From: a phage
Direction: 5' to 3' (one strand)
NCBI GenBank assembly: GCA_024572335.1
Contig: GCA_024572335.1_3052.1
Length of the DNA stretch: 64,000 bases
A model generated the notes under the pieces. It saw only the letters and a program-made list of their open reading frames with translations. It made no database searches and was not told the DNA's origin. Shown here piece after piece: positions 14,156-58,066 of this stretch. The position numbers and the translations under genes are program-made. Every line of letters starts with the position of its first letter. Positions within the stretch are counted from its first letter, which is position 1.

Positions 14156-14449
14156 TTATTCACCTGTGATTTCAGTTACGATATTTTTGTTATTAAAGTT
14201 TTTATCGCAATACAAAACATAATTATACTGCATTACACCACCAGACTTAAGCTGTTTTTGTACTTCAGCTTTCATTTCAGGGCGATCACGCTCAACGATA
14301 TTCATAATATCTGCTTCAATCTGAGTTTCAACTTCAGTCTGATCCGCAGTCATAGACCATTCACACAAATCTTTATCATAACCTGCCATAGCAGGCTGAG
14401 CAGCACAAGAAGCTAAAGCAAAAATTGCAGCAAAAACAAATTTTTTCAT
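14156..14449 (-). CDS. sp: Periplasmic protein Spackle-like (Sp)
   Basis: 97 aa with cleavable signal peptide MKKFVFAAIFALASCAAQPAMA; size and position as T4 sp. Confidence 0.6.
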   Translation of the reverse strand: MKKFVFAAIFALASCAAQPAMAGYDKDLCEWSMTADQTEVETQIEADIMNIVERDRPEMKAEVQKQLKSGGVMQYNYVLYCDKNFNNKNIVTEITGE

Positions 14450-20034: not shown

Positions 20035-20415
20035 TCACTTAGTCAAATTTTTTACACATGAATTATAAGAATTCACTACATACTCCATCGGAGCATTTTT
20101 ACCAGTACGCCATTGGTAATTATTAGCCCAATTAGCCCAAAGCTCGGCGCAGTAGTTTTCAATTTTTTCTTCGCGTGTAATTACATCAGAATTACGATAT
20201 GCTTGAGCAGATTCATCTGGACGAATAGCTTCGTCAAAATTCGCCTGCATTTGTTCGACTGTTTGATTTGGAGCTTCTTTATAACACTTGACATTAGGAT
20301 TATAAAATTTGCTTGAACAGTTTACAATTTTTCCTACATCAGACTGATTTACTACCGGTCCTTGAGCCACACAACCAGTAAGACCTAATGCAATAACCAA
20401 AATAGCGATTTTCAT
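20035..20415 (-). CDS. Lipoprotein (imm.1 position)
   Basis: Track has TTG start; ATG at 20415; lipobox LTGC after signal peptide MKIAILVIALG; SD GGAGA. Confidence 0.55.
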   Translation of the reverse strand: MKIAILVIALGLTGCVAQGPVVNQSDVGKIVNCSSKFYNPNVKCYKEAPNQTVEQMQANFDEAIRPDESAQAYRNSDVITREEKIENYCAELWANWANNYQWRTGKNAPMEYVVNSYNSCVKNLTK

Positions 20416-50242: not shown

Positions 50243-50629
50243 TTATTCGAGGGAAAGAAGATACTTACTCTGGTAAAACATTCCAGTAATATCATCTATC
50301 GTGCTTTGAATGGCTGGAGGCATTTCTTTATAAATGCTGTTAGATTGGTCTAGTATGCGATCAATCATTTTAATTGTGTCGGTAGGAAGTTTACTGGCAT
50401 CTGGAATTGAAGGCGTGTATTTTCTACCAGAATACCCCAAATATTGCTCACCAAATTTATCAATCAAATCTGGCAACTCGGAGAAAATAAAATCGTATGC
50501 TTTGTGTCTAGCATAACTTTTAGTTTCAAAATGCGCAGAATGAAAATAAGCTTGTGCAGCCATTAATAAACCTAAGTATTCATCTGCCTTTGAAGGTTTT
50601 CCACTTTGTGAAAAGTCGCTGAATTTCAT
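50243..50629 (-). CDS. Hypothetical protein (rI.-1 position)
   Basis: 128 aa ATG ORF between a terminator and rI. Confidence 0.45.
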
Positions 50630-50919
50630 TCAGTCTCCAATTTAATGTTCATAATTCTAGCGTATGATTGTGCCATCTCCGCGCCTCGTTCTATACATTC
50701 AAAATCAGAAGAGCACGGGTCATTTTTATAGGTCGTTCTCATAAAACTATAGAACTGTTCAGATGATTCTACGCTTTTATTTTCAAAAAGCATATAAACA
50801 TGTCTAATACCAGATTCCATAAATTTATCAAAATGAGGATCGACATTCGCTTCAATTGATGGAGATAAAGCAAATGACAATCCTAGCATGGCAAAAAGTG
50901 CCGTTGCTTTTAAGGCCAT
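50626..50919 (-). CDS. rI: Lysis inhibition regulator RI (periplasmic, signal-anchored)
   Basis: 97 aa; N-terminal MALKATALFAMLGLSFALSPSIEA signal sequence; size and position as T4 RI next to tk. Confidence 0.6.
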   Translation of the reverse strand: MALKATALFAMLGLSFALSPSIEANVDPHFDKFMESGIRHVYMLFENKSVESSEQFYSFMRTTYKNDPCSSDFECIERGAEMAQSYARIMNIKLETE

Positions 50920-51777: not shown

Positions 51778-51963
51778 TTAAAGCGTATTCACATAAGCTA
51801 TTAATTCATTTTCTTTCTTATCAAACCGATCAGCAAATTCTTCCTGCTGTTCGGGAGATAGCGGGCCGTATTCATCATAAAAGGTGTTTGCTTCTGTATG
51901 CTCATCTAGAAGTTCATGGATAAGCTCAAACAATTTATCTTTTTGTTCTTTACTCAGACTCAT
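51778..51963 (-). CDS. Hypothetical small acidic protein
   Basis: 61 aa ATG ORF. Confidence 0.4.
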   Translation of the reverse strand: MSLSKEQKDKLFELIHELLDEHTEANTFYDEYGPLSPEQQEEFADRFDKKENELIAYVNTL

Positions 51964-52129
51964 ATATTAATTTCCAGGAGTTTTAAAATAATTCGCTTTT
52001 GCTTAAATATTTCCATAGTTAAATGATCAGTATCTTTTTGACCAATTCCAATGGCAAAACCTTTATTAGCAGCGAGTTCAATTAAATTATCAAGCTCACG
52101 TAACACTTCGTATTGTAACTCAAAACTAT

Positions 52130-52336
52130 TCATTTTGGTTTACCTTCTTTAACGAAATCTGGATAAGGATAAAATCCCGAATAAAATCCTTCACCTTTAT
52201 GATTGATACATCCTTTATTAGAACAATAGCACCAATAATCGAAATCACAAGTCATTTCATCGTTGCATAAAGCAAAAACAACCGGCCACTTACACTTTTC
52301 ACAGTGGGCATTTTTAAGAATGCTAGTTTGGCTCAT
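52130..52336 (-). CDS. Small Cys-rich protein
   Basis: Track ORF 52130..52357; ATG at 52336 follows AGGTGA; cysteine pattern CEKC...C...C...CYC...C. Confidence 0.4.
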   Translation of the reverse strand: MSQTSILKNAHCEKCKWPVVFALCNDEMTCDFDYWCYCSNKGCINHKGEGFYSGFYPYPDFVKEGKPK

Positions 52337-52545
52337 AACCATGTCACCTTTAAGCAATATTCTTCTACGTGCTGTTTACGACCTTTCTTATCAATAAAGG
52401 TATATTCAACGAATGTTCCAATGTAGTCTTTATCTACATCATGTGGACTATTAATTGGACATTTAGTACGGCAAATGCGTTCCCATTGACGAATAATTAC
52501 TGCTTTGTTTTTAGGATCAAACGGATGCGGGTAATGTACTTTCAT
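52333..52545 (-). CDS. Hypothetical small protein
   Basis: 70 aa ATG ORF. Confidence 0.4.
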   Translation of the reverse strand: MKVHYPHPFDPKNKAVIIRQWERICRTKCPINSPHDVDKDYIGTFVEYTFIDKKGRKQHVEEYCLKVTWL

Positions 52546-52996
52546 AATCCACCACTATTAAATCAATATCAGGAGTAAACATGTCAATTAATTTAGAAAC
52601 CTTATCCCAATCGCCGCCAGCGATACCACAACCTATGCGTGGAATGTAAATTACTGGTTTGAACAAAAGGGTTTCTGCCTGTAGATTTAATTCTATCATG
52701 CAGTTTACTAAAGCACCATAATCAAGATTAGGACCTGGTTCGTATTGCGTATACAGGTTATAGCATATACCAAATCCCGTAGGACTATGTTTAAAAACAA
52801 TAGACATATCGCCTAATTTATCACGAGAACCGTACTCAGTAGTGGTTTTATCTATTTCTAAAATTTTGGGATAGGCTCTTGCTAATTGACCCGCTACACC
52901 TGAACCCATAGTATGAAAACAATTGCACCCGTGCGCAATAATATTACCTTGAAGAAATAGGGCGACAATATCGCCCTTGATATATTTTACAATCAT
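52517..52996 (-). CDS. Macro domain protein (ADP-ribose binding/hydrolase fold)
   Basis: 159 aa; GDIV...NIIAHGCNC...GSGVAG and IPRIGCGIAGG motifs typical of macro domains. Confidence 0.65.
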   Translation of the reverse strand: MIVKYIKGDIVALFLQGNIIAHGCNCFHTMGSGVAGQLARAYPKILEIDKTTTEYGSRDKLGDMSIVFKHSPTGFGICYNLYTQYEPGPNLDYGALVNCMIELNLQAETLLFKPVIYIPRIGCGIAGGDWDKVSKLIDMFTPDIDLIVVDYESTLPASV

Positions 52997-53334
52997 CTAG
53001 TACTCAATCCTCGATTATAAGAATCTACCAAACGGTCAACCATTGAATGACAAGCGGCTTTATCTTTCTCCTCCGCAACTGAACATTCTAAGGTATTCCA
53101 CTTTTTAGCATATCGTTTTAACAATGTATCATTTTTGTATCTGCTTGATTTATCTCTTTCTCCGTCTTTATATGCATATATTAATTTCTGCGCAAATTCA
53201 GCTTGGCATGCTTTATTTTTCCCGCAATAATCCGCTGCAGTACGGTTTACATACTCTCTAATTTCAGTATATGATGTATCTGCTAACGCAGAAAATGAAA
53301 TTAATCCTATACATAAAACCAAAATTTTAGTCAT
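52993..53334 (-). CDS. Secreted/periplasmic protein
   Basis: 113 aa; signal peptide MTKILVLCIGLISFSALA; four conserved Cys. Confidence 0.45.
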   Translation of the reverse strand: MTKILVLCIGLISFSALADTSYTEIREYVNRTAADYCGKNKACQAEFAQKLIYAYKDGERDKSSRYKNDTLLKRYAKKWNTLECSVAEEKDKAACHSMVDRLVDSYNRGLSTR

Positions 53335-53872
53335 TTACTATTTCCAAAAGTTTATTATTTTTAAGGTAATTAGCCTTTTCTAGGACTTCAGAAGCATATT
53401 TAGAACCTGCTTTAACATTCCATCCCGAATTATAAGAGGATATTGCTTTTCTTATATCGCCCTTATGTATATTTAACCAATAAGAAAGTTCAATGTACGC
53501 CCAGGAAGCTGAATTGGACCGTTTATTCAACATTCTTTTTATTTCAGCATCGGTCATATTATAACCAAGTTCCTTAACTCTTGCTCGCATAGTAGGCAAA
53601 TAATTTTGGAACATTCCATAAGCGTGATGCTTTGGTTTAGATTTTAAATTAACTCCGCCAGAGCTTTCTTGCCATAAAATAGCAGCCATTATATGACCTA
53701 ATCCGCTCTTGTGGATATTTTTGTGTGTTTTATATTTTCCATCCTTAGAAAATTGTTCCCCGAATTGATACGCGTAACGCATGTTATCGAGTTGGACATT
53801 ACTGAAAGTATGCTCGGAGCTATGTGCCATCATTGAAATGGCCAATAGACCAGCGAGTAGTGCTTTTCTCAT
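53327..53872 (-). CDS. Secreted lytic transglycosylase-like (SLT domain) protein
   Basis: 181 aa; signal peptide; SLT-like ILWQESSGG ... GMFQ ... YNSG motifs. Confidence 0.55.
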   Translation of the reverse strand: MRKALLAGLLAISMMAHSSEHTFSNVQLDNMRYAYQFGEQFSKDGKYKTHKNIHKSGLGHIMAAILWQESSGGVNLKSKPKHHAYGMFQNYLPTMRARVKELGYNMTDAEIKRMLNKRSNSASWAYIELSYWLNIHKGDIRKAISSYNSGWNVKAGSKYASEVLEKANYLKNNKLLEIVND

Positions 53873-53879
53873 GCTTACC

Positions 53880-54341
53880 TCATTGAGTTTTAATTACTGC
53901 TTTAGAAGCCTTTCCTGGTAAACGACGACTGTTGATAATTGCCATCCTACATTGAAGTGACGGGTCTTTGAACTTCGCATTAGGTTTACAAACTGTAAAT
54001 CCAAGCCAAAGATTTCCATTTGTGATTTCTAAACGTCCAGGACGGTATTCAACCCCATCAATAAAATCCTCGTCAATGTCAGGACGCGGAGGCATACTCA
54101 GGAATTCATTAACTTCTAAAACATGGTCTTTTATTTTATGGAATAATTCAAAAACGTATGTCTCATCAATCTCCCGTTGAATTGCACGATCAAGAAGATG
54201 TTGAGAATATTTTAGATGAAACGATGAGACTCCTTCTGCTTTTGATGCTTCACGAATCTCATTGTTAATTTGACGAAACTCCGACTCAAAGTGACGACGA
54301 AGCTTATTTCGACGGATAAAAACTTCTGTATTGATAGTCAT
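53880..54341 (-). CDS. regB: Endoribonuclease RegB
   Basis: 153 aa as T4 RegB; position between tk-side ORFs and the lysozyme side; own early promoter and SD GGAG. Confidence 0.55.
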   Translation of the reverse strand: MTINTEVFIRRNKLRRHFESEFRQINNEIREASKAEGVSSFHLKYSQHLLDRAIQREIDETYVFELFHKIKDHVLEVNEFLSMPPRPDIDEDFIDGVEYRPGRLEITNGNLWLGFTVCKPNAKFKDPSLQCRMAIINSRRLPGKASKAVIKTQ

Positions 54342-54369
54342 GTTATTCTCCTCTTAACTGATAGAAAAA

Positions 54370-54398
54370 TTATACCACAGTCAAGAGGAAAAGTAAAC
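54370..54398 (-). promoter_or_regulatory. Early promoter upstream of regB
   Basis: GTTTAC, 17 nt, tgGTATAAT; SD GGAG. Confidence 0.55.
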
Positions 54399-56535: not shown

Positions 56536-57009
56536 TTATTTGAACGATTTAACGTACTGAATAGAACCCTTACTATTCACAAAGGCAATTTTACCATTTT
56601 TATTATACATGGTAGCAGTACGCTGATAACCATAGGTTTGTTTACCAGATTGATAACCAACTAATGCAAAATTATCTTCACCCATTTTATTCTGTTTAGC
56701 GCGAATGCGTTCATGACCATGTGCCATAAGAACCTTAGCATCACCAGTTGCAATGGATCGACGAGTTTTTTCATCTTCAACTGCATTAACAAAGTCGTCA
56801 AATGAATCAAATTTAGCATGAGATTTATTATACAATTTTCCATCTACTGCATAATTATATCCCTGTACATCCATCTCAACTTCTGTACCATCATCCAATA
56901 CAGCAGTAATTTTTTGACCTTTTTTAAATTTCAAAAGATCAGTAAAAGATTCAGCAATAATTTGAGAATTAATAGCTGCTTCAGTGATAAATTCTTGATA
57001 TGTTTTCAT
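56536..57009 (-). CDS. Internal protein (IP) with capsid targeting sequence
   Basis: 157 aa; N-terminal MKTYQEFITEA matches the T4 IP capsid-targeting decapeptide; located just downstream of e as T4 ipIII/ipII. Confidence 0.6.
   Translation of the reverse strand: MKTYQEFITEAAINSQIIAESFTDLLKFKKGQKITAVLDDGTEVEMDVQGYNYAVDGKLYNKSHAKFDSFDDFVNAVEDEKTRRSIATGDAKVLMAHGHERIRAKQNKMGEDNFALVGYQSGKQTYGYQRTATMYNKNGKIAFVNSKGSIQYVKSFK

Positions 57010-57097: not shown

Positions 57098-58066
<969 letters not shown>

Follow-up and report, generated by a model that had tools for sequence, protein, structure and literature searches.

The closest described counterparts of the locus analysed here are two genes of bacteriophage T4, vs.1 and vs. 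T4 Vs.1 (NP_049725, UniProt P13311) is the product of open reading frame (ORF) 61.4 of Valerie et al. 1986 and is encoded between regB and vs; its SLT similarity has been in print since 2006 (PMC1524935, citing the 2003 T4 genome review), and our literature search returned no experimental study of the protein. T4 Vs (NP_049724, UniProt P13310) is the product of ORF 60.9, belongs to PF26829 and is annotated as 'valyl tRNA synthetase modifier'. A recent report singles out vs as the T4 gene for which the need is greatest in minimal medium; the explanation given for its function goes back to a biochemical observation made in the 1970s. The corresponding genes were studied here in a 64,000-nucleotide stretch of phage DNA (contig GCA_024572335.1_3052.1 of GenBank assembly GCA_024572335.1), which is referred to as the window. 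On its minus strand, the window contains an ORF of 181 amino acids (aa) at 53327..53872, encoding a predicted Sec-exported, single-domain lytic transglycosylase of family 1 (GH23), followed by an ORF of 113 aa at 52993..53334, encoding a predicted exported four-helix bundle with four conserved cysteines. We consider it probable that both proteins are exported and that Vs.1 acts as a GH23 enzyme. The interest of the locus lies in the sequence of Vs set against its textbook function, a question made timely by the clear phenotype of vs.

The 2.1 kb around the two genes were 98.7-99.2% identical to many Tequatrovirus genomes, indicating that the window comes from a T4-like phage. The product of ORF 53327..53872 was 100% identical to T4 Vs.1 over 181 aa, and the gene occupies the same place between regB and vs. 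The product of ORF 52993..53334 was 99% identical to T4 Vs, and its gene has the same position and the same overlaps with its neighbours as in T4. The two Vs proteins differ by a deletion of 2 aa and a single S to L change, all inside the N-terminal predicted signal peptide, and the identity bands obtained with tblastn are compatible with a frequent occurrence of both lengths in sequenced T4-like phages. The finding is a re-identification of two named T4 genes, one of which has had a domain prediction in print for about twenty years. The first-pass annotation of the window, made from the letters alone, had recognised neither the gene names nor the published SLT similarity.

Vs.1 matched the Pfam SLT domain (PF01464) over aa 61-154 (E=1.4e-5); the score of 25.1 bits exceeds the gathering score, 21.3. 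Several of its homologs bear a precomputed PF01464 match. The motifs QESSGG, GMFQ and YNSG are found at aa 68-73, 86-89 and 147-150, respectively. Of the 77 homolog clusters found, 31, reaching down to 41% identity, were aligned with the window protein. Eight residues were invariant in all 32 sequences (E69, G86, F88, Q89, Y147, N148, G150 and Y159); S146, which precedes Y147-N148-x-G150, was invariant or nearly so. Glu69, the predicted catalytic acid in WQESS, is encoded at 53666..53668 (minus strand). Using hhalign, WQESS was placed on ARQESA of E. coli Slt70, whose Glu we take to be the catalytic residue, and AYGMFQNY on ASGLMQIM, with a weak score (E=0.16). The conserved positions presumably correspond to the four motifs of family-1 lytic transglycosylases (E-S, G-x-x-Q, Y-N-x-G and a Tyr). 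By this assignment the set is complete in Vs.1, with the catalytic Glu followed by Ser in motif I (E69-S70), a G-L-M-Q-like motif II, the A-Y-N-x-G of motif III and the conserved Tyr of motif IV (Y159).

The AlphaFold model of Vs.1 was confident (pLDDT 89.3), apart from aa 1-20, and its predicted fold was that of a lysozyme-like, all-helical GH23 protein, which supports the SLT assignment. Sequence searches of the PDB with Vs.1 or a Vs.1 profile gave nothing significant, the best match, at E=0.37, being marginal and falling on the C-terminal motif of g-type lysozyme, and NCBIfam contained no match for either Vs.1 or Vs. Collectively, motifs, domain score and model indicate that the lytic transglycosylase domain (SLT, GH23) of Vs.1 is genuine and that its predicted catalytic residues are intact.

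Compared with bacterial family-1 transglycosylases (E. coli Slt70, MltC and MltE; P. aeruginosa MltF, Slt and MltD), Vs.1 displayed only 13-19% identity. Unlike these enzymes, it is the product of a phage early gene and consists of a bare catalytic domain with an N-terminal extension of about 40 residues, devoid of a lipid anchor and of superhelical or LysM modules. Small transglycosylases specialised for secretion or conjugation systems (EtgA, VirB1, IpgF and P19) are coupled to a trans-envelope machine, a component of which often activates them, whereas for Vs.1 neither a machine nor a partner of this kind is known; no gene for a trans-envelope machine was found beside vs.1, the neighbours being regB, vs and a macro-domain gene, so that any likeness to EtgA or VirB1 is functional only. 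The virion-associated phage transglycosylases T7 gp16, phiKZ gp144 and phi6 P5 belong to the same fold family as Vs.1; these are structural proteins carried by the particle that act from outside at entry, whereas Vs.1, which bears a signal peptide, is produced inside the infected cell from an early transcript. The Vs.1 family is broad: tblastn retrieved 2046 phage records, among them Straboviridae infecting enterobacteria, Aeromonas and Acinetobacter. This makes vs.1 a widely conserved, early gene of large myoviruses for a predicted exported wall-cutting enzyme.

Both proteins begin with an export-type N-terminus. The predicted signal peptide of Vs.1 covers aa 1-18 (53819..53872, minus strand; MRKALLAGLLAISMMAHS, cleaved before S) and was recognised by its hydrophobicity, the -3/-1 rule and low pLDDT over aa 1-20; it is made of MRK, the core ALLAGLLAISMMA and AHS, followed by S. 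The one predicted for Vs also covers aa 1-18 (53281..53334, minus strand; MTKILVLCIGLISFSALA, cleaved before D), agrees with the -3/-1 rule, has pLDDT values below 50 at aa 1-3 and 10-18, and is made of MTK, ILVLCIGLISF and ALA, followed by D. In both, the n-region is basic and the hydrophobic core, 11-13 residues long, is followed by a small-x-small site; neither contains a lipobox. The mature proteins are predicted to start at S19 of Vs.1 (SEHTFSNVQLDNMR) and at D19 of Vs (DTSYTEIR; D21 in T4 numbering). Model confidence was low at both N-termini, which lie outside either predicted fold.

A crude, self-written rule was applied to all window ORFs of at least 60 aa, asking for a basic n-region, a hydrophobic core of 10-15 residues and small residues at -3/-1. 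It flagged 7 of 155, both vs.1 and vs among them, and because so few ORFs were flagged, two neighbours with signal peptides do not look like a chance pattern. The other flagged ORFs include, on the minus strand, a 97-aa spackle-like ORF (14156..14449), a 126-aa ORF with a lipobox, LTGC (20035..20415), and the antiholin gene rI (50626..50919). Among IMG/VR relatives, the rule was passed by 38 of 41 distinct Vs.1 sequences, the 3 failures being an artefact of ORF start calling, and by 41 of 43 Vs sequences, the failures being one borderline score and one fragment. A signal-like N-terminus is kept in homologs of both proteins while the sequence varies. We therefore infer that Vs.1 and Vs are exported and cleaved.

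Vs was assigned to PHROG 1256, 'valyl tRNA synthetase modifier' (E=5e-40), and its homologs bear PF26829 (ValRS_modifier); the window protein had no significant Pfam match in the local library and no PDB relative by sequence search. Searched exhaustively with a Vs profile, 1.84 billion proteins yielded 8 representatives only and no bacterial relatives. The AlphaFold2 model of Vs (pLDDT 79) is a four-helix bundle with helices at aa 20-37, 41-60, 69-84 and 89-111, and a structure search with this model produced generic matches only, with no informative relative. The mature part has four cysteines (C37, C43, C84 and C95), which sit at two helix-hairpin turns of the model. All full-length relatives examined keep the four cysteines and an export-type N-terminus, and exactly four are present in 36 of 43 IMG/VR sequences. 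They are arranged as C-x5/6-C ... C-x8/10-C, or as C-x10-C ... C-x8-C in phage Lw1. Distant relatives from Klebsiella, Edwardsiella and Acinetobacter phages share the export-type N-terminus and the four cysteines; tblastn with T4-type Vs appears to miss them. As far as sequence can tell, this combination is the signature of a disulfide-bonded periplasmic protein. Nothing in the sequence or the model marks Vs as a cell-wall enzyme. The signal peptides, the SLT-like motifs of the larger ORF and the conserved cysteines of the smaller one had all been pointed out in the first-pass annotation, and each was borne out by these analyses.

The export features of Vs conflict with the cytoplasmic residence demanded by its annotated function, a conflict read from sequence that does not amount to a refutation. 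The original 1986 T4 record names vs only 'ORF 60.9', and no experiment tying this ORF to the vs locus or to the purified modifier (tau) was found in the accessible literature. The computed masses of Vs are 12.9 kDa for the precursor and 11.0 kDa for the processed protein. Tau was reportedly a protein of about 10 kDa, to which the mass of processed Vs comes closer than that of the precursor; were Vs present in its processed form, passage through the membrane would be implied.

Among IMG/VR loci collected with Vs.1 and containing both genes, vs directly followed vs.1 in 47 of 48, with a spacing of -8 to +3 nucleotides (nt); a gap of 141 nt was found in the remaining one, and one of 49 loci was without either gene. 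All 18 loci collected with Vs had vs directly after vs.1. In the window, the two coding sequences share an 8-nt overlap (ATGACTAA; 53327..53334, minus strand), so that vs starts within the last codons of vs.1, an arrangement suggestive of translational coupling. The same adjacency was found in JS10, PEi20, a Krischvirus, Klebsiella phage Roth66 and Acinetobacter phage Mokit, as well as in a metagenomic phage with Vs.1 at only 40% identity. Every examined locus with vs had vs.1 adjoining it, or one ORF away in phage Lw1. An apparent loss of vs in a metagenomic scaffold (L004, from 4696 onward) was rejected, as a run of N inside the gene marks an assembly gap.

Several loci carry additional material after vs. 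About 15 of the 48 IMG/VR loci have an insert of 380-650 nt at this place. A third signal-peptide protein of about 130-140 aa follows vs in Roth66 (L008:2363-2755), in a metagenomic locus (L005:4836-5246) and in Mokit (L014:2324-2749); no homolog of it was found in the window. In Mokit (L014:1480-3347), vs.1, vs and two more signal-peptide proteins run into rI as one block of exported proteins, and in T4 and the window, tk and tk.1-tk.4 stand between vs and rI.

A site resembling an early promoter (TTTACT, a 17-nt spacer and TG-TATAAT; 54369..54397, minus strand) was found by consensus scan upstream of regB. Its distance to regB, 28 nt, equals that of the potential -10 noted at ORF 61.9 (regB) in the original T4 record, and it is the likely source of a transcript covering regB, vs.1, vs and tk.4. 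Time-resolved omics classed vs.1 and vs as early at the RNA level and middle at the protein level, and both products are on the list of detected proteins (PMC9697503 supplements). Early expression fits both the promoter-like site and these published data. The first-pass annotation had likewise counted the two genes among the early ones and set them apart from the endolysin gene e, which is indeed a separate gene at 57098..57592.

Fitness data are available from a transposon sequencing study of T4 (HIDEN-SEQ preprint, 10.1101/2025.11.20.689424), in which vs.1 and vs were both non-essential. In M9-glucose relative to LB, vs was the most depleted T4 gene, a result confirmed by clean deletion; the log2 fold change was -2.19 for vs (adjusted p ~0) and -0.87 for vs.1 (p 0.0055, adjusted 0.155). 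In liquid LB, mean insertion counts were 23-27 for vs.1 and vs and 179-652 for regB, tk.4 and vs.3; in the reference plate library they were 76-103 for vs.1 and vs and 267-634 for vs.4 and vs.3. These data indicate that mutants of both genes carry a cost, which is larger for vs. In the same study, regB insertions were enriched in the comparison of LB and M9 (Extended Data Table 6, sheet S8; log2 fold change +1.17, with a p of 0.049 that lost significance on correction), opposite to vs.1 and vs.

Taken together, these elements suggest a model in which the promoter upstream of regB would drive early transcription of vs.1 and vs, and translation of the two genes would be coupled. The Vs.1 precursor would be exported through its Sec signal peptide to the periplasm, where the mature form of about 18.8 kDa, using Glu69, would cleave the host wall at its MurNAc-GlcNAc bonds, in an action distinct from those of the tail lysozyme gp5 and the endolysin e. 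Vs, translated from the same message, would also be exported and would form a four-helix bundle of about 11 kDa with its cysteine pairs serving as periplasmic disulfide staples. Both proteins would act in the cell envelope during infection and bring a modest, condition-dependent benefit. Wall cutting might serve a controlled loosening before lysis, or a remodelling that keeps the infected cell productive. Enzymatic activity of Vs.1, disulfides in Vs and any interaction between the two proteins are conjectural parts of this model. A partnership would follow the pattern of periplasmic pairs such as T4 gp5 lysozyme and Spackle, Tse3 and Tsi3 of the T6SS, or g-type lysozyme and PliG, each made of a wall-cutting enzyme and a small exported protein whose gene adjoins that of the enzyme or which is matched to it. 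We put forward only tentatively that Vs acts with or on Vs.1. Equally tentative is the view that the role of Vs lies wholly or partly outside the cytoplasmic modification of valyl-tRNA synthetase (ValRS), and is that of an exported, disulfide-stapled periplasmic protein working with or restraining Vs.1. If this were so, the minimal-medium defect of vs mutants would arise in the cell envelope, and the ValRS link would reflect either the assignment of the vs locus to the wrong small ORF or a binding that takes place only after cell breakage. The explanation dating from the 1970s would need revisiting, and vs.1-vs would offer a tractable example of phage-controlled wall remodelling during infection.

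Several observations weigh against the model, and against a partnership of Vs with Vs.1. Binding of Vs to the cytoplasmic ValRS is attributed to Muller & Marchin (1975, 1977) in a citation carried by PMC8076793. Neither in fold nor in sequence does Vs resemble a known lysozyme or transglycosylase inhibitor (Ivy, PliC/MliC, PliG, Spackle or Tsi3), which sets it apart from the small partners in the pairs named above. Another difference from those pairs is that Vs.1 occurs without Vs in several phage groups, as in Aeromonas phage 31, Det7 and Felix-O1-like phages. Det7 (Ackermannviridae) encodes gp70, an exported-type Vs.1-like GH23 protein with the same motifs and no Vs partner (L010:1453-2070); the Felix-O1-like phage finno encodes gp46, a Vs.1-like GH23 protein with a signal peptide and the same motifs, which adjoins rIIA/rIIB and has no Vs partner either (L011:1501-2049). 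As a control for gene order, regB was found directly upstream of vs.1 in 47 of the same 48 loci. The product of regB is a cytoplasmic RNase, and because this gene is an equally constant neighbour, the adjacency of vs.1 and vs was down-weighted as evidence of partnership: plain gene-order conservation explains most of it. Only the distant loci that lack regB and keep vs (Mokit and L005) favour the pair beyond that. The weaker phenotype of vs.1 insertions may come in part from a polar effect on vs, whose translation is coupled to that of vs.1. The authors of the transposon study interpreted the phenotype of vs in minimal medium as one of nutrients (10.1101/2025.11.20.689424).

The same points can be assembled into a different account, which we regard as possible while leaning away from it: Vs would be the cytoplasmic tau that binds host ValRS, with an N-terminus unused or poorly used for export, Vs.1 alone would be periplasmic, and their adjacency would reflect conserved gene order. 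Besides the attribution of ValRS binding, the constancy of regB and the lineages that have Vs.1 without Vs, this account draws on the depletion of vs in minimal medium, a condition in which the amino acids needed for translation must be supplied de novo. It has to contend with an N-terminus made of K/R, a hydrophobic stretch and a small-x-small site in 41 of 43 family members despite sequence drift, with the position of that N-terminus outside the predicted fold, with four invariant cysteines at helix-hairpin turns, and with the 1986 record, where 'ORF 60.9' stands without an accessible experiment linking it to tau. The first-pass annotation had proposed that both proteins are exported to act on peptidoglycan, at DNA entry or in superinfection control. 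The peptidoglycan-acting part holds for Vs.1, through its GH23 domain, and is unsupported for Vs, a member of the ValRS-modifier family whose predicted four-helix bundle shows neither a fold nor a motif typical of enzymes. The export signals of both proteins and the transglycosylase domain of Vs.1 would suit such a role, and T4 counters the lysozyme of a superinfecting phage with spackle, itself a periplasmic protein, which counts for exclusion. Vs.1 and Vs are nevertheless synthesised only after the infecting genome has entered, so that a role at DNA entry is implausible, and the window has a distinct spackle-like ORF elsewhere (14156..14449). We consider this proposal very unlikely as a whole. 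It is also improbable, if somewhat less so, that Vs.1 is not a lytic transglycosylase in practice, and is instead a hydrolytic goose-type lysozyme or chitinase-like enzyme, a catalytically silent wall binder, or an auxiliary endolysin of the signal-anchor-release (SAR) type kept in the membrane until its release at lysis. In g-type lysozymes, the second acidic residues are located after the catalytic Glu. No conserved Asp follows Glu69 at those positions in the 32-sequence alignment, and a transglycosylase is indirectly favoured over a goose-type lysozyme for this reason; the family-1 motif set is complete. The hydrophobic stretch of about 13 residues with a good AHS site before S is typical of cleaved signal peptides, and vs.1 is expressed early, not late, both of which speak against this view. 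An exported Vs.1 with transglycosylase activity remains the reading that we prefer.

Upstream of vs.1, regB (53880..54341, minus strand) encodes an endoribonuclease (Pfam REGB_T4, E=5e-68), and a GAGG Shine-Dalgarno sequence of vs.1 (53878..53881, minus strand) overlaps the regB stop codon. Further along, the segment 55855..57592 contains a single internal-protein-like ORF of 157 aa (56536..57009) between a vs.8-like ORF and e, where T4 has denV, ipII and ipIII; a simple string search of the whole window revealed no denV motif. Downstream of vs, whose stop codon overlaps the start of the next gene in an ATGA (52993..52996, minus strand), tk.4 (52517..52996, minus strand) encodes a protein with a Pfam Macro domain, 159 aa long in the window and 155 in T4. 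The tk.4 product was named AdfM, an anti-DarTG2 factor that protects T4 from the DarTG2 defence (2025 preprint, bioRxiv 10.1101/2025.11.20.689424). A GC-rich inverted repeat (AGGGCGATATTGTCGCCCT; 52959..52977) with a perfect 8-bp stem lies just inside the 5' end of tk.4 and has a terminator-like score on both strands. Between tk and tk.3, three small ORFs of 61, 57 and about 70 aa (51778..52342, minus strand) are found, unlike the tk.1/tk.2 arrangement of T4.

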